This document shows, one piece after another, positions 8,698 to 43,290 of a stretch of DNA of 64,000 bases; position 1 is the stretch's first letter; each line of letters opens with the position of its first letter. The stretch is from an uncultured Opitutia bacterium. Lineage in GTDB: Bacteria; Verrucomicrobiota; Verrucomicrobiia; Opitutales; Opitutaceae. The notes below the pieces were generated by a model. It was not told the DNA's origin. It saw only the letters and a list, made by a program, of their open reading frames with translations, and ran no database searches. The DNA is taken from contig CAIJFT010000286.1 of NCBI GenBank assembly GCA_903820035.1, positions 102-64,101 of the forward strand, written 5' to 3'. The translations under genes and the position numbers were made by a program.

Positions 8698-10665
8698 ATG
8701 ATTTTCGTCCGCCACCTCCGTCCGCTCCTCCGCTTCGCCTTCGCCGTGCTGGCCGCCACCCTCGCCGGCGCCGCGCCGGCCCCGCGGCAGATGGAGACCC
8801 TCGGGCGCGGCGTCGTCGCCCTCAAAGCGGAAGACCACAAAATCTTCATCAGCTGGCGCGTCCTCGGCACCGACGCCCCCGCGCTCGCGTTCAACCTTTA
8901 CAGCGCCGCCGACGGCTCGGCTCCGGCCAAACTCAACGCCGCCCCGATCACCGGCGCCACCCACTTCTCCGACACCACCTTCGATCCCGCCCGGGCCAAC
9001 GCCTATTTCGTGCGCCCCGTCCTCGGCGGCGTCGAACAACCCGCGAGCGCCCGCTTTACCGTCGCGGCCGGCGCTCCGGTCCGCCCCTACCTCTCGATCG
9101 CGTTGCAGACGCCCCAAGGCTACACGCCGAACGATGTCTCGGTCGGCGACCTCGACGGCGACGGCGAGTACGAGATCATCCTCCACCAAACCGGCCGCGC
9201 CCGCGACAACTCCCAAGCCGGCGTCACCGACGAGCCGTTGCTCCAGGCCTACAAACTCGACGGCACGCGGCTCTGGACCATCAACCTCGGGAAAAATATC
9301 CGCGAAGGCGCGCATTACACGCAGTTCCTCGTGTACGACCTCGACGGCGACGGCCGCGCCGAAATCGTCTGCAAGACCGCCGACGGCACCGTCGACGGGA
9401 CCGGCCAGGTGATCGGGAACGCCGCCGCCGACTGGCGCACCCAAGGCGATGCGCCGGTCCCTTCCGCGGACAAGACCGGCAGCCGCACCACGCCCGACGG
9501 CAAGCGCGTGGCCTCCCGCGCCGGCTACGTCCTCGCGGGCCCGGAGTACCTCACCGTCTTCGACGGCCGCACCGGCCGCGCCCTGGCCACGACCGACTAC
9601 CTGCCCGCCCGCGGCGACATCAACAACTGGGGTGACGGCTACGGCAACCGCGTCGACCGCTTCCTCGCCTGCGTCGCCTACCTCGACGGCGTGCGCCCGA
9701 GCTTCGTCATGTGCCGCGGCTATTACACGCGCACGACGCTCGCCGCCTGGGATTGGCGTGACGGCAAGCTCACACCTCGCTGGTTTTTCGATAGCGATAA
9801 GTACGGTCCCGCGGATCGCTCCAACCCGTACCGCGGCCAGGGCAACCACAACCTGAGTGTCGCGGACGTCGACGGCGACGGGAAGGACGAGATCATCTAT
9901 GGCGCGATGTGTATCAACAGCGATGGCACGCCCCGGTACACGACCAAGCTCGGTCACGGCGACGCGCTGCACGTTTCCGATCTCGACCCGAACCGCCCCG
10001 GCCTCGAGGTCTTCGACATCCATGAAAACCCGCGCCATCCCTTCGGCCTCGAGTTCCGCGATGCCAACACCGGCGCGCTGATCTGGGGCAAACCCGACGG
10101 CGCGGAGAACGCCCCCGACGTCGGCCGCGGTTGCGCCGTCGACCTCGACCCGCGTTATCCCGGAGCGGAGATGTGGGGCTCAGGCGGACCGCGCGTCCGC
10201 GGCCTTTACAACGTGAAGGGCGAAAAGATTTCCGAGCGCAATCCGTCCTCCTGCAACTTCGCGGTGTGGTGGGACGGCGATCTCCTGCGTGAACTGTTGA
10301 ATTCAAACCGCATCGACAAGTGGAACTGGACCGACGGCACGGAGACCCGCCTGCTCACCGCCGAGGGCTGCACGTCCAACAACGGCACCAAGTCCACGCC
10401 CGCGCTCAGCGCCGATCTCTTCGGTGACTGGCGCGAGGAAGTGATCTGGCGCACGACCGACAACCAGGAACTGCGCATCTATTCCACAACGATCCCCACC
10501 GAACACCGCTTGTATACGCTGATGCACGATCCGCAGTACCGACTGGCGGTCGCCTGGCAAAACGTCGGTTACAACCAACCGCCTCACCCCGGCTTCTTCC
10601 TTGGCGACGGCATGAAGCCCGCCCCCCGACCGAACATCGTCACGGTCCCCGTCAAGGCCCCCTAG
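8698..10665 (+). CDS. Rhamnogalacturonan lyase, PL11 (YesW/YesX-like), secreted
   Basis: Signal peptide; repeated DxDGDG Ca-binding loops; REGAHYTQFLVYDLDGDGRAE, GQGNHNLSVADVDGDGKDEI, NNGTKSTPALSADLFGDWREEV, TLMHDPQYRLAVAWQNVGYNQPPH. Confidence 0.95.
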   Translation: MIFVRHLRPLLRFAFAVLAATLAGAAPAPRQMETLGRGVVALKAEDHKIFISWRVLGTDAPALAFNLYSAADGSAPAKLNAAPITGATHFSDTTFDPARANAYFVRPVLGGVEQPASARFTVAAGAPVRPYLSIALQTPQGYTPNDVSVGDLDGDGEYEIILHQTGRARDNSQAGVTDEPLLQAYKLDGTRLWTINLGKNIREGAHYTQFLVYDLDGDGRAEIVCKTADGTVDGTGQVIGNAAADWRTQGDAPVPSADKTGSRTTPDGKRVASRAGYVLAGPEYLTVFDGRTGRALATTDYLPARGDINNWGDGYGNRVDRFLACVAYLDGVRPSFVMCRGYYTRTTLAAWDWRDGKLTPRWFFDSDKYGPADRSNPYRGQGNHNLSVADVDGDGKDEIIYGAMCINSDGTPRYTTKLGHGDALHVSDLDPNRPGLEVFDIHENPRHPFGLEFRDANTGALIWGKPDGAENAPDVGRGCAVDLDPRYPGAEMWGSGGPRVRGLYNVKGEKISERNPSSCNFAVWWDGDLLRELLNSNRIDKWNWTDGTETRLLTAEGCTSNNGTKSTPALSADLFGDWREEVIWRTTDNQELRIYSTTIPTEHRLYTLMHDPQYRLAVAWQNVGYNQPPHPGFFLGDGMKPAPRPNIVTVPVKAP

Positions 10666-10734
10666 CCTTGGCGTCGCGCAGACTGATTCGCTTGGTTCAC
10701 TTCAGGATAGGGTGCGTTTCGCAGTCCATTACCC

Positions 10735-11178
10735 ACTCCGTGCAATCGGTGGTCTAATCCGGGCGACCCGTTTTAAGGCCGGATCATTTTAACCACAGCG
10801 CGCACCGAGTAGACGGAGTGGATAATACCTCGGACGGCGACGCCCATCAGTCAAAAGCCCCCCGGGCCGGAACCACGACCGCGGCCTTTGGTGTGTTTCG
10901 GGTATTTCTTGGTCCACCCTTCCGACCGGTTCCATCCGCCCTCCGACCAATCCATTTCACGCGGAGCCGCGGAGAACGCGGAGCCCAAGCCACCTGCTCC
11001 CCCGCGGTCTCCGCTCCTCCGCGCCCTCCGCGTGAACCCTTTTTACGCACTGGAGTCCCCACCCCCACTACCACGCCCCCCGCCCGGTCTTCTTCCGTGT
11101 TGTTCCGTGTGTTCCGTGGCCCCCCGGCTTGGTCCGCCGCCTGTCTCCGGCCTTTCGTGTATTTCGTGTGTTTCGCGG
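10735..11178. repeat. Cluster of triple-9-mer repeat arms and hairpins between convergent genes
   Basis: Arms at 10735-10753/10791-10819, 10886-10912, 10956-10983/11009-11036, 11092-11120 and 11152-11178. Confidence 0.85.
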
Positions 11179-11199
11179 TTTCTCCCGGGGTGGAGAAAC
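11178..11199 (-). terminator. Hairpin just downstream of the TBDR stop (possible terminator)
   Basis: gtttctcc-cggggt-ggagaaac, 8-bp stem; no clear U-tract. Confidence 0.4.
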
Positions 11200-11216
11200 A
11201 CCGACCGCGCCTCGCC

Positions 11217-14210
11217 TCAGAACCGACCGTTGATGCCGCCACTGATCGTCACGAAGTTGACGAGGGTGCGCTGGGTGCGGTCCTTCGGACCGCGGTAGAA
11301 GACTTGGGGCTCGTTGAAGATGTTCGCGGCATCGAGGCTCAGGCTCACACTCGGACGCACCTGGTAGGAGACGCCGACGTTCGTGGTCTTCATGGATTGC
11401 CGATAGAGACGCAGCGCCGGGGTGGCGTTATAGCTCGTGATGTATTCTCCCGTGAAGTTGTAGAGGATACGCGTGCTGAAATTACGATGGCGCCACGACA
11501 GCGAGGCGTTGGCCGCATGCGGGATGAATCCGGCCACATCGCGGCGAGTGAGGTAGGTCGTGCCGGTGTAGTTGCCGTGCGTGTCGATCCAGGTGTAGTT
11601 GAACGAACCGGCCAACCCCTTGAGCACGCCGGGCAAGAAGGTGAACTGCTGCCGGTAGGAAAATTCCCAGCCCTGCGCGATCGCGGAGTTGGCGTTGACG
11701 GAGCTGATTTCGGTCCAGCCCCCGTACTCGCCGTCGTAGCCGTTGCCCGGCCCGGTGCCGATGACGCCGACCTCTTGGTTACTGATAATATAGTCGCGGA
11801 TTTCTTTGTGGAACCAGCCGAGCGAGATCTGACCGACGGGCTCGAAATAATACTCGAGGCCGAGGTCCCAGGTGCGGGCGGTTTGCGGTTTGAGGCCGGG
11901 GTTGGCGATGGTCACGCGGCGGTTGGCCTCGTCGGGCGTCTCGGCGGGCAGGAAGTTGCCGAGGTCGGCGCGGCCGAAGCTCGTCGAGTACGCCGCGCGG
12001 AACTTGAGGTTGGTCGTGAGATCGTGAAACGCGTGGATGCTCGGGAACGCCTTCCGGTAGTCGGCGCTGAGCTTGCGGTCGTTGTTCGCGTAATCGCGTT
12101 GGGCGGAGCCCACGGGATCGGCCACCTGTTGCGCCGCGCTGCTCAACACCCGCGCGCGGACCCAGCCCCAGCTGTCCACGGTGGTGTCCTCCACGCGGAC
12201 GCCGCCGAGAAAGCCGGTGCGGCCCAGAAAGCCCTCGGTGCCGAGCCGGCCCTGGGTCATGGCGTAGGCGGCGGAGGCCGTCTCGGTCAGCCCGCGGGTG
12301 GCGGTGAATTTCTGCGTCTCGTTATAGTAGCGATCCTCCACCCAGAGCGAGGAGTTGAGGGGCCGGCGCTGGTCCATGAACGCATTGGAATACCAGCGGG
12401 GAAACACGAAGCCGGTCTCGCGGGCGTTGTAGATGCCGATCGTGGGATCCGTGGGGAGCGCGGGCCCGTTGGCGAGGTAGGACCAGCGGTGGTTGTCCTT
12501 GCCCCAGATATCGAGCACCTGCTCGCGCCAGGAGACGCCGGCCTTGAGATAGAGGGGCGTGGAGACCGGCAACTGGTAGCGGGCATTGAAACGAGCCTGC
12601 GAGAGCTGCTGGTCGTTCTGGTTGTTGCCATTGACCAGACCGTTGGCGATCGGGCGGTAGAGGCTGCCGTCGCGGATATCCGGCCCGCCGTTTTGCGTGA
12701 AGCGAGGGAACAGGTCGGAGTTGGTCCGATCGATGATCCAGCCGGCGCCGGCGAGGCGCATCGTGAGAGAGCCCGAGGTGCCGTCGCCGTTGTTGAGATG
12801 CGTGTAGCCGATACCGGCGGTGTAATCGATCTGCCAGTTGCGGTACTCGTGGTCGCCGGTAAAATCAGCCCGGCGCGTACGCACGACATAATTGCGCGGG
12901 CCGTCGATCAGGATGTCGACGTTGTTGGCGGCGACGGGCCGGATCGTGGTCACGCGATCATTGAAGGCGCCAGGCACGACGCCGGTGGTGGCGCTCGGGA
13001 CGGTGGTGGCGCTGCCGGTGTAAGCGCGCGCCTCCATGCGGCGGCGGAAGCGCTCGATATTGTTGTTGCCGAGCAACGTCACCGAGAAGCGCGAGGTCGG
13101 CGACCAGCGGTAGTCGGTGCGGAGACTGAGGCTCGACTGCTTGCGGTTGTTGAAATTATCCCAGACGCGGTAGTCCCAGATATAGGCCTCGGGTGCGGGC
13201 GTATTTTGGTAGTCGAAAGTCGTGCTGGTGCCGCCGACGGCGTTTTCGCTGTAGAAGGCGTTAACCGCGACGGCGAGGTTGCGCGTGCCGCCGAAGACAT
13301 CGAATAGTTCCTGGTGGGCGATGTTGGCGAGCGGATGGGAGCGGTGCTGCTCGCGGATGGGAACTTGTTCAAAGAAGGGCGGCGCCCAACGTCCGGTCAG
13401 ACTGTAGGTCGTGCGGCGCTTTTCGCGCATGCTCAGGGGCGAGCGGGTCTTCAGGTTGAGCGTGGCACCCAGCGAATCGGCGCCCTGGTCGGGCCGGTGG
13501 CCCTTGGTGAGTTCAAGTGCCTCGAACATGGTGCCGGTGATGCTTTGCAGCTCGAAGGCCCGACTGGTGCCGAGGCTTGGCATCAGACCGCCGTCGACCG
13601 TCACCGTGTTCAGTCCCGGGGCCATGCCCCGCATGTTGAACTGATAGTTGAGACCCTCGTCGGTCGGGCTGCCGGCGACGCCGGGGAGGCGCATCACGAC
13701 TTCGCCCGCGCTCATGTTCGGCAGGTTGCCGAACGAATCCATCGCGACCACATTCTTGAGCGTCTCCGAGTTGCGCTGGCTCGTGAGCGCGACGGCTTCG
13801 CCTTCGCGGGCGCCGGTAACCTTGAAGGCCTCCAATTTGTAGATCCCGGTCGTGAGGTCAAAGTTGCGGTCGGCGCGCGCGCCATCGGCGAGGGTCACCT
13901 GCACGCGCGCGGCGTCCAGGCCGATGTAGGACACCAACAGTTCATGCGTGCCGGCCGGCAGGCCGCTGAGCACATAACGGCCGGTCTCGTCCGCGAGCGC
14001 CGAGCGGCCGAGCGCGGGCACCTGCACGCGCGCGCCTTCCAGCAGGTTGCCGGTGGCGGCATTGCTGACGGTGCCGGCAATGACGCCGTTGTCGGCGGCG
14101 AATGCGGTCGGGCGGGCGCCCAACACCGCGCAGGCGGCGAGCAGGACGGCGAACGCGGCGGAGCGCACACGCACGGCGGGACGGGAACACAGGAAGGCAC
14201 GGGGATTCAT
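11217..14210 (-). CDS. TonB-dependent receptor with carboxypeptidase-regulatory-like N-domain
   Basis: 997 aa from ATG 14210 (MNPRAFL...AADNGVIAGTVSNAATGNLLEGARV); EGEAVALTSQRNSETLKNVVAMDSFG plug motif; NPGLKPQ; C-terminal INGRF. Confidence 0.93.
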   Translation of the reverse strand: MNPRAFLCSRPAVRVRSAAFAVLLAACAVLGARPTAFAADNGVIAGTVSNAATGNLLEGARVQVPALGRSALADETGRYVLSGLPAGTHELLVSYIGLDAARVQVTLADGARADRNFDLTTGIYKLEAFKVTGAREGEAVALTSQRNSETLKNVVAMDSFGNLPNMSAGEVVMRLPGVAGSPTDEGLNYQFNMRGMAPGLNTVTVDGGLMPSLGTSRAFELQSITGTMFEALELTKGHRPDQGADSLGATLNLKTRSPLSMREKRRTTYSLTGRWAPPFFEQVPIREQHRSHPLANIAHQELFDVFGGTRNLAVAVNAFYSENAVGGTSTTFDYQNTPAPEAYIWDYRVWDNFNNRKQSSLSLRTDYRWSPTSRFSVTLLGNNNIERFRRRMEARAYTGSATTVPSATTGVVPGAFNDRVTTIRPVAANNVDILIDGPRNYVVRTRRADFTGDHEYRNWQIDYTAGIGYTHLNNGDGTSGSLTMRLAGAGWIIDRTNSDLFPRFTQNGGPDIRDGSLYRPIANGLVNGNNQNDQQLSQARFNARYQLPVSTPLYLKAGVSWREQVLDIWGKDNHRWSYLANGPALPTDPTIGIYNARETGFVFPRWYSNAFMDQRRPLNSSLWVEDRYYNETQKFTATRGLTETASAAYAMTQGRLGTEGFLGRTGFLGGVRVEDTTVDSWGWVRARVLSSAAQQVADPVGSAQRDYANNDRKLSADYRKAFPSIHAFHDLTTNLKFRAAYSTSFGRADLGNFLPAETPDEANRRVTIANPGLKPQTARTWDLGLEYYFEPVGQISLGWFHKEIRDYIISNQEVGVIGTGPGNGYDGEYGGWTEISSVNANSAIAQGWEFSYRQQFTFLPGVLKGLAGSFNYTWIDTHGNYTGTTYLTRRDVAGFIPHAANASLSWRHRNFSTRILYNFTGEYITSYNATPALRLYRQSMKTTNVGVSYQVRPSVSLSLDAANIFNEPQVFYRGPKDRTQRTLVNFVTISGGINGRF

Positions 14211-14490
14211 GCTTTGCACGGGGGGTTGGGGTGAAATAACCGAGCAGCCGGAGGAAAAACCAGGGGGAAGAAAAACCGGCTGAGACGCGAGGGAAGGTCC
14301 TCTGCGGGAGATGTTTCTTTCCCAAAAACTCGCAAAGCTAAACTGCGCGAACGATTCCCGCTCGGGCCGTGACGGGGTGCGCGAAGCAGAAAGCGTGGTC
14401 GGTGGGCGAACCGTTTTGACCCAAGCCGGCGTACTCACTCGATCTACTCCCAGGCCGCGTCGCTTCCCTGTATTCCGCTGAACGATCCGG

Positions 14491-14583
14491 CACTTGACCC
14501 TTGTCACTTGCCCCCTCGCCCCCACCCCTCTCCCCTTCCCCTTCCCCTTCACTCGCGCTTTCCCCTTCACTCGCCCTTTCCCT
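14491..14583. repeat. Pyrimidine-rich tandem repeats upstream of sbcD
   Basis: 7-mer triplet cacttga-cccttgt-cacttgc (14491-14511); 18-nt direct repeat ttccccttcactcgc(g/c)ct twice (14542-14577). Confidence 0.7.
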
Positions 14584-41352: not shown

Positions 41353-41590
41353 CCCACGGAACACACGGAGAACACGGAAGCGGAAGCCAACCTTCGAAAG
41401 CCGGTGGCTACGAGCGCTCGCGGGCGGCGAATGTGGCCATTCCGATCGATGCAAAGGTTCACGCGGAGCAGCGGAGGTCGCGGAGATTGATCCTGCCCTC
41501 CCTTCCTGCCCCCCCCCGCTTTTCACCTCACCCGCCGCCCTGAACAAGGGAGCCTCGGCGCACTTCCGTGTCTTCCGTGTGTTCTGTGGG
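41353..41590. mobile_element. 238-bp MITE/REPIN-like element with 28-bp terminal inverted repeats
   Basis: 41353-41380 cccacggaacacacggagaacacggaag vs reverse complement of 41563-41590 cccacagaacacacggaagacacggaag: 25/28 identical; no internal ORF. Mobility is inferred only. Confidence 0.55.
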
Positions 41591-43210: not shown

Positions 43211-43290
43211 GTTGAAAGTCATCCGTTGAAAGTTGAAAGGCACGGACGGCAGAAGCCCCGGCTTTAAACGTTCAACCATCAACGTTCAAC
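43211..43290. repeat. Inverted pair of 7-mer tandem arrays (STRR-like hairpin)
   Basis: gttgaaa-gtcatcc-gttgaaa-gttgaaa ... tttaaac-gttcaac-catcaac-gttcaac. Confidence 0.75.

Follow-up and report, generated by a model that had tools for sequence, protein, structure and literature searches.

Periodic three-word repeat arms in one intergenic gap of an uncultured Opitutaceae genome as probable gene-less relatives of GxxExxY (PF13366) cassettes

Repetitive extragenic palindromic (REP) sequences and their paired forms, the REPINs, are short dispersed intergenic repeats that often occur as inverted doublets or hairpins, with several families in one genome. Each REP family is tied to a low-copy gene for a REP-associated tyrosine transposase (RAYT) that is itself flanked by an inverted repeat, and the gene-less copies outnumber the genes. 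The REP unit, 20-40 nt long, is imperfectly palindromic and has a conserved GT[A/G]G head, and the RAYT is a Y1 transposase of the HUH type. The short tandemly repeated repetitive (STRR) sequences of cyanobacteria form a separate class of heptamer repeats with no reported gene link. Here we describe a cluster of periodic repeats in a 64,000-nt stretch of DNA (the window) from an uncultured Opitutia bacterium of the family Opitutaceae (GenBank assembly GCA_903820035.1, contig CAIJFT010000286.1, positions 102 to 64,101), and we compare it with small cassettes that encode GxxExxY proteins (PF13366 / TIGR04256). A full cassette spans ~410-490 bp, carries as its sole gene a nuclease of ~125 aa between two inverted arms, and occupies the gap between two host genes almost exactly. 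Each cassette arm is made of three direct C[A/G]CNRAN words at a 9-bp period, usually with a CC...GG outer end, and the variants of the word are referred to below as dialects.

The closest published architecture is that of the intervening sequences (IVS) of 23S rRNA that carry an open reading frame (ORF). In Coxiella burnetii, a 28-bp stem with tandem heptamers surrounds the S23p (PF05635) gene of the 23S rRNA IVS and is cut by RNase III (PMC4990558). Heptamer repeats have also been described with no link to a gene, including GGGNATC in Xanthomonas and Nostoc (PMC4692102) and TAACTGA in Beggiatoaceae, Cyanobacteria and Bacteroidetes (PMC4679880). The GxxExxY family itself was listed in a superfamily survey as very widespread, with multiple transfers and with its function given as "Unknown" (PMC3424549). 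From our examination of the literature on GxxExxY, PF13366 and TIGR04256, no paper was found that describes repeats of the family or a repeat-plus-enzyme pairing.

Among these systems, REP/REPIN-RAYT is the closest in concept. The arms described here are likewise dispersed and intergenic, they form inverted doublets, they flank a low-copy enzyme gene, and the gene-less copies are in excess. Unlike the RAYT, the enzyme is a PD-(D/E)XK protein (PF13366) and not an HUH Y1 transposase. Unlike a REP, the arm consists of three direct 9-nt words with neither a palindrome nor a GTAG head, does not fold alone, and recurs in the same dialects across phyla. With the ORF-bearing IVS, the cassettes share a small gene placed between inverted tandem-word arms within a transcribed unit. 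However, S23p is a four-helix bundle with no nuclease fold, the IVS period is 7 where that of the arms is 9, the arms of the window cluster are gene-less and lie outside rRNA, and RNase III excision has been shown for the IVS only.

The heptamer classes (STRR, GGGNATC and TAACTGA) resemble the arms in their short tandem words, small preferred copy number, intergenic location and patchy cross-phylum spread; they are transcribed, have no known mechanism, and have been explained as G-quadruplexes or translational operators. They possess a period of 7 and are mostly direct and variable in number, whereas the arms possess a period of 9 and three words, are commonly inverted and are linked to a nuclease. 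Miniature inverted-repeat transposable elements (MITEs) are similar in being short, non-autonomous elements with inverted ends that derive from a gene-bearing parent by internal deletion, a path that is illustrated below by two loci (L208 and L214). In contrast to MITEs, no DDE transposase is involved, the interiors of CACGRAA hairpins are unrelated between copies, and solo or direct arms are common; the flanks of six CACGRAA hairpins showed no direct duplication, with the empty sites of relatives too diverged to place exact junctions. The arms are best described as a further case of a repeat paired with a cognate enzyme, in which both the enzyme and the repeat grammar are different.

The window cluster holds at least three dialects, namely CACGGAA (with a cognate gene on contig C457 of the same genome), CACGAAA and CGCGGAG, together with a CACCGAG-like pair. 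We consider it fairly probable that remnants or satellites of GxxExxY cassettes, all of them lacking the gene, have piled up in this region. The genome (G000, 6.05 Mb, 65% G+C, 469 contigs, with the window on contig C286) was scanned for generic arms, defined as three C[AG]CNRAN words at a spacing of 8-10 nt in which later words differ from the first by at most one mismatch. The original prediction had named enrichment of the period-9 motifs over background as its check, and this was borne out, with 142 arms recovered against 7 in the reversed genome and 9-10 in first-order Markov shuffles. The commonest dialects were CGCGGAG (51), CACGAAA (20), CACGGAA (16) and CGCGAAG (15). A strict form, CACGRAA-NN repeated three times, was found 15 times, and its backwards-read control was found 0 times. 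The unit number was exactly three in 37/38 CACGRAA arms and in 44/52 CGCGGAG arms, and the dialects keep the ~9-nt period and three-word arm while the core differs, as had been proposed from the window alone.

We further characterized how the arms are arranged in this genome. Among 120 arms, 48 were found in head-to-head pairs that form hairpins and 12 in the reverse arrangement, with the remainder solo or in direct arrays; the CGCGGAG hairpin unit alone is present in more than 30 copies. It was noted that 50 of the 120 arms of the nine-nt class lie within 400 nt of a contig end, compared to 6% expected, and that 34 of the 52 CGCGGAG arms are at contig edges. This excess indicates that the family breaks the assembly in the manner of young repeats, and the true copy number is probably well above the assembled count.

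The association of arms with PF13366 genes was first evident on a Vicinamibacterales contig, where a 153-aa ORF (PF13366/PDDEXK_3, E 2.9e-31; TIGR04256, E 7e-31) lies between two CACGGAA arms spaced 640 nt apart. Four PF13366 genes were found in G000 (on C457, C41, C410 and C21). CACGGAA arms that share a 32-nt inverted match flank the gene at C457:15260-15607 on both sides, and this cassette fills the space from the stop of an ABC ATPase gene to the start of a permease gene almost exactly. The C41 gene adjoins CGCGGAG hairpins, and the C410 and C21 genes possess weaker arms than those at C457. At 120 cross-phylum loci chosen by the arm pattern alone among the matches listed, 10 GxxExxY genes were encountered, of which 8 were bracketed by or adjacent to an arm.

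We then surveyed 68 distinct PF13366 genes, comprising 30 from the genus, 30 from 12 genomes of other phyla, and the genes of the junction examined below. Inverted upstream and downstream arms scoring at least 15 were found around 51 of the 68 genes and around 0 of 204 displaced controls, and several of the genes below this threshold still possessed recognisable arms. The best internal period of the 51 arm pairs was 9 in 31, 8 in 7 and 10 in 6, and the CC end was distal in 47 of them, which places the gene inside the would-be hairpin. The dialects of the window are represented: CACGAAA arms bracket PF13366 genes in relatives (L141, L152, L160, L211 and others), and CGCGGAG arms bracket them at two loci of the genus (L161 and L165). 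The association of arm and cassette is an observed one. Twenty gene-bearing cassette loci gave 0 Rfam matches at gathering score.

A different layout was observed in a Brocadiaceae genome (G075, locus L181, ~1200-2150), in which a complete gene-less hairpin of ~180 nt stands on either side of the GxxExxY gene. Both of these hairpins are CACGGAA-armed and share the same conserved interior, so that the order is hairpin-gene-hairpin, not gene-in-hairpin.

We next assessed the diversity of dialects against the protein phylogeny. Approximately 20 dialects were found among the surveyed genes, including CACGAAA, CACGGAA, CACAGAG, CACGAAG, CACAAAG, CACGAAT, CACTGAT and CACTAAT, with CACAGAT, CGCGGAG, CGCAAAG, CGCTAAT, GACAGGA and others in addition. 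The frame C-[A/G]-C-N-R-A-N is common to all dialects except a few (GACAGGA and GACTATG). On a maximum-likelihood tree of the 68 proteins, 28 dialect changes were required, compared to an average of 44.7 over 300 label shuffles, none of which needed fewer than 40. Proteins from Gemmatales, Brocadiaceae, Gemmataceae, Planctomycetota and Pyrinomonadaceae clustered with the genus proteins of the same word despite their different genomic sites, and a deep, well-supported split separates lineages with A or T at word position 7 from lineages with G. As the dialect tracks the protein tree, gene and arms appear to travel and evolve as a unit, which argues against generic landing pads. The earlier suggestion of one architecture diversified into subfamilies agrees with the common word frame, the single flanked protein family and the way in which dialect follows its phylogeny.

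Within the 68-protein alignment, a few columns co-varied with word positions 5 and 7 by mutual information, and the candidate residues are 3, 19 and 90 in L154 numbering. In three separate dialect groups, words with G at position 5 accompany a Thr ahead of the Y/E-x-I-I/L-G helix. At word position 7, A/T or G pairs with the N or T of an NY/TY motif, and likewise with the Cys or Pro of a G-C/P-G turn. These residue-word links, drawn from the alignment, are suggestive and are confounded by phylogeny.

Gain and loss were examined at one site. No empty site of the gap in the window could be obtained from relatives, as they are 70-80% identical in nucleotide sequence and the junction is not conserved; for this reason, the junction between the ABC ATPase and permease genes was used for the site comparison. 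It was readable in 28 genomes of the genus. An empty junction with a gap of 10-16 nt was found in 6 of them, and 17 possessed a GxxExxY match in a gap of 410-488 nt, one of which (L223) was partial only. Two carried an internally deleted gene with intact arms (L208, 284 nt; L214, 255 nt), and three carried gene-less hairpins of other dialects (L206, L207 and L219). Of 11 genomes whose junction gene was full or truncated, 10 possessed strict CACGRAA arms, and the four genomes without the gene held 0, 0, 0 and 1.

The GxxExxY proteins at this junction are 58-84% identical to the G000 copy, compared to 79-93% for the flanking proteins, which suggests from sequence comparison that they may evolve faster or be replaced. 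Junction cassettes (L205-L228) were observed in several dialects and protein clades (CACGGAA, CACGAAA and CGCGAAT), and the gene-less hairpins there were of unrelated dialects (CACAGAG and CCAAG/CCAAA-type). These patterns suggest that the same junction was occupied repeatedly. Other junctions were also occupied in several species of the genus with related dialects, including a putative gatA/gatB-like junction and a site upstream of a putative hemL-like gene, identified from flanking sequence. One relative with 71 strict CACGRAA arms carries a junction PF13366 gene with an in-frame TGA (G017:C2:46008-46355).

The strict arm is widespread. Among 41 related genomes, 17 possessed a strict CACGRAA arm, with at most 96 copies each; 15 of these, including G000, were within the genus, and the other two, with one match each, were from other families of the same order. 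Over the same 41 genomes, the backwards-read control gave one match only. Gene-less arms far outnumber GxxExxY genes, as illustrated by one relative with 96 strict arms and 2 PF13366 genes. An exact-match scan of one genome per species recovered at least 120 contigs with a strict arm compared to ~0.07 expected under uniform composition. The matches listed include Verrucomicrobiota, Acidobacteriota, Planctomycetota, Kiritimatiellae, Bacteroidota, Desulfobacterota, Gammaproteobacteria, Cloacimonadota, Armatimonadota and others, and many of those listed are metagenome-assembled genomes (MAGs) of Opitutaceae and other Verrucomicrobiota. The same arm was found across host G+C contents of 40-65%, often as a hairpin and with identical aaCC...GGtt outer ends.

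The repeat cluster of the window sits in a 551-nt gap (10666-11216) between convergent gene stops, and its features are collected in Table 1. All five items located by the original prediction were recovered at the positions it gave, and the inverted pair it had reported at 10735-10751/10803-10819 (14/17) lies inside a larger pair of 24-nt arms. The gap holds five gene-less units, namely three solo arms and two hairpins, one of the CGCGGAG dialect and the other of two words. The two-word hairpin carries two CACCGAG/GACGGAG-type words in its arms, with CCAC/GTGG ends outermost. The CGCGGAG hairpin has CGCGGAG three times in its left arm (10960-10983), CTCCGCG three to four times in its right arm (11000-11032), and tCA...TGa closing ends. 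The three solo arms share one orientation, reading CCAC... on the strand of the receptor gene, and the CACGGAA arm is nearly identical to the arms that bracket the GxxExxY gene at C457:15223-15678. The composite unit is present in seven copies in the genome including this one, with the others on C271 (two), C42, C58, C188 and C80 (BLAST, 74-85.5% identical).

Table 1. Features of the repeat-bearing gap and its flanking genes (window coordinates).
Feature	Position	Strand	Details
RGL11-type rhamnogalacturonan lyase gene	8698-10665	+	PF21348, E 4e-232
Two-word hairpin	10728-10826		24-nt arms 10728-10751 / 10803-10826, 83% complementary
Degenerate solo arm, CACGAAA dialect	10882-10913	-	reads CGGCCTTTGGTGTGTTTCGGGTATTTCTTGGT on + strand; 81% identical to 11148-11179
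Gene-less CGCGGAG-dialect hairpin	10956-11036		arms of 22 nt at 86% and 16 nt at 88% complementary
Solo arm, CACGGAA dialect	11093-11118	-	TTCCGTG x3; CACGGAACACACGGAACAACACGGAA on minus strand
Composite 88-nt unit	11093-11180	-	CACGAAA arm, GC-rich spacer of ~32 nt and CACGGAA arm; arms in same orientation
Solo arm, CACGAAA dialect	11153-11177	-	TTTCGTG x3; CGCGAAACACACGAAATACACGAAA on minus strand
TonB-dependent receptor gene	11217-14570	-	stop faces the gap

The setting and the folding of the units bear on function. The placement between convergent 3' ends was correct for this gap and did not extend to the family as a typical setting: among the 56 arms of the genome with both neighbouring genes called (rough calls that cover 77% of the genome), co-directional genes flank 42, convergent genes 10 and divergent genes 4. 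In RNA folding, the two hairpins fold well beyond shuffles, with -29.4 and -34.6 kcal/mol for the two strands of the CGCGGAG hairpin (z -6.6 and -7.1) and -20.6 kcal/mol for the two-word hairpin (z -3.4). The solo arms and the 88-nt unit do not (z ~0 to +1); the solo arm at 10882-10913 has no structure of its own (z +0.9), and the 88-nt unit is unstructured on both strands (z -0.05 and +1.0). Terminator-like patterns numbered one weak case in the region (11020-11034) compared to 1.1 in shuffles. A general role as terminator or RNase barrier, which had also been raised for testing, was not supported, given the three solo arms among five units, the unstructured 88-nt unit, the shuffle-level terminator patterns, the mostly non-convergent arms of the genome and the lack of a sense-strand G:U bias.

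No GxxExxY gene was found within the window, and a six-frame search of 10600-11300 with the family profile (hmmsearch --max) found no remnant of the nuclease gene at E <= 100. Rfam 15 returned for the region only matches of E 0.26 and 0.7, far below gathering scores. Two further structures were observed in the window. A hairpin with a 13-nt stem (11173-11204; TCGCGGTTTCTCC / GGAGAAACACCGA, 85%) stands directly past the receptor stop, overlaps the outer end of the CACGAAA arm and has no T run. At 41355-41588, inverted CACGGAA-type arms (41355-41379 on the plus strand and 41564-41588 on the minus strand) surround 184 nt that hold a lone CGCGGAG arm (41462-41485), so that one dialect is nested within another.

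The protein encoded by the C457 cassette was modelled with AlphaFold2 at a mean predicted local distance difference test score (pLDDT) of 94 and a predicted template modelling score (pTM) of 0.86. Across ten aligned sequences, G15, E23, G25, G27, E30, D70 and K82 were invariant and E80 was at least 90% conserved; this E...D...ExK pattern is as would be expected of a PD-(D/E)XK active site. The nearest solved folds were Cas4 SSO0001 (E 5e-5, TM 0.5-0.6), lambda-exonuclease-like enzymes and tRNA-splicing endonucleases. A sequence search of the PDB with the same protein gave no match at E <= 0.01.

From the dialect-tree tracking, the modelled nuclease fold and the conserved E, D and ExK residues, we infer that the nuclease would bind or cut the words. 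In the mechanism that we propose, the three words may be recognition sites of the cognate nuclease, which would act on DNA as an oligomer, and the nuclease may act both in cis and in trans to move or maintain its cassette as well as the gene-less arms. Where an internal deletion removes the gene, hairpins and solo arms would remain, and in the window a permissive gap past the 3' ends of two convergent genes may have collected such units. A reading in terms of DNA or protein sites was preferred over one in terms of an RNA stem because solo and direct arms are abundant, unpaired units are unstructured, and the sense-strand mismatches between paired arms (33 G:T vs 45 A:C) show no excess of G:U. 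More tentatively, and with somewhat less confidence than a coin toss would give, we propose that GxxExxY is the sole enzyme of undescribed, cross-phylum minimal elements, which reads three 9-bp words via a few specificity residues and maintains or spreads its cassette together with the gene-less arms.

If this were true, the dialects in one gap would be the footprints of several co-resident nuclease lineages, and the dialects of the window would be related satellites of those lineages and not a locus-specific regulatory device. A demonstration that the nuclease reads and moves the words would establish a new class of element. The proposal links a protein family of unknown function with unexplained short periodic intergenic repeats, and it offers a testable function for PF13366, namely reading or acting on arrays of 9-bp words. 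It also allows hundreds of puzzling repeats per genome to be annotated, repeats that break MAG assemblies as well, and the family may represent a compact nuclease whose specificity varies naturally by lineage.

Several observations weigh against the reading of the region as remnants or satellites of GxxExxY cassettes and against a mobile nuclease behind them. Occupied junctions are shared among deeply diverged species, as would be expected of long vertical residence no less than of mobility. The loops of CACGRAA hairpins are entirely different between copies, a pattern more in keeping with independent decay than with whole hairpins being copied and pasted, and no target-site duplication was visible at the six hairpins inspected. 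Within G000, the bracketing arms of the C41 and C21 genes are weak or decayed, and no CACGAAA-type PF13366 gene was found. Arm polarity was reversed in 4 of the 51 surveyed genes. The residue-word links are underpowered, with only 1-3 independent pairs on well-supported branches and no significance reachable.

An RNA-level role offers one alternative, in which arm stems in the host transcript are cut by RNase III, so that the cassette is looped out as in the 23S IVS, or serve as 3' stabilisers, terminators or RNase barriers, with the gene-less hairpins retaining this role. The cassettes inside operons must be co-transcribed, the two hairpins of the window fold far better than shuffles, one weak terminator-like pattern is present at 11020-11034, some upstream arms reach the start codon and contain GGAG-like runs, and the Coxiella stem provides a precedent for cleavage (PMC4990558). 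Approximately half of the arms, however, are solo or in direct arrays and are unable to pair, the two-arm 88-nt unit is unstructured, neither G:U pairs nor terminator-like patterns exceed expectation, and the tracking of dialect with protein across phyla is left unexplained; we regard this role as unlikely. That tracking also bears on the possibility that the word arrays belong to the host and have no tie to GxxExxY, for instance as sites for a regulator or nucleoid protein or as structure-prone hot spots, and that the genes use them as landing pads. Such an origin would account for the vast excess of gene-less arms, the Brocadiaceae gene placed between two complete hairpins, the single junction that carries hairpins of different dialects in different species, and the nesting of other repeats inside an arm pair of the window. 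It predicts any protein lineage in any dialect, whereas the dialect follows the protein tree across phyla and sites. In addition, genomes with no CACGRAA-type gene at the sampled junction are nearly devoid of CACGRAA arms, and one word frame shared by at least 10 phyla at 40-65% G+C is hard to ascribe to a single host factor, and we therefore judge independent host arrays to be improbable.

Far less probable still is that the arms are ordinary REPs or REPINs that depend on a RAYT for their movement, or MITEs that depend on a DDE transposase. They are indeed dispersed, mostly intergenic, often in inverted doublets and of several families per genome, but no arms lie within 600 nt of either of the two weak Y1_Tnp (PF01797) matches in G000 (C126 and C10). 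An individual arm lacks both a palindrome and a GTAG head, conservation does not extend to the interiors, target duplications were not seen, and the bracketed gene encodes a PD-(D/E)XK protein. The idea that the periodic motifs arose by chance or local slippage with no family relationship has nothing in its favour except the small size of each unit. It is refuted, in our assessment with near certainty, by the excess of arms over the reversed and shuffled controls, by the fixation of three units in 37 of 38 arms, and by the exact cross-phylum matches far above expectation. The preferred reading, in which the gap has collected gene-less remnants or satellites of GxxExxY cassettes, was retained.

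Other element types were considered for the cluster and rejected. An integron attC site was rejected as the arm polarity is opposite to that of the attC core sites, and a clustered regularly interspaced short palindromic repeats (CRISPR) locus as there is no regular repeat-spacer array. Intrinsic terminators were rejected on the absence of any excess over shuffles of a G+C-rich stem followed by a T run, together with the three unpaired units among five. A simple sequence repeat or STRR array was rejected as the unit number is fixed at three and is not slippage-variable.

A parallel arrangement was noted for the S23p family. The three PF05635 genes of G000 (C229:28965-29279, C332:31407-31721 and C135:4203-4499) are bracketed by inverted arms of period 7, with words of GTTGAGA, CAGAGGT/TCTGACC and GAGGGA-like type. 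Judging from the bracketing arms in this genome, PF05635 is associated with a period of 7 and PF13366 with one of 9. If the nuclease proposal were true, the two kinds of arms together would account for a large share of the short periodic repeats of many bacterial genomes that have had no explanation. A total of 102 GTTGAR arms, mostly of four units, are dispersed in G000, and one of these lies in the window at 43264-43290 on the minus strand.

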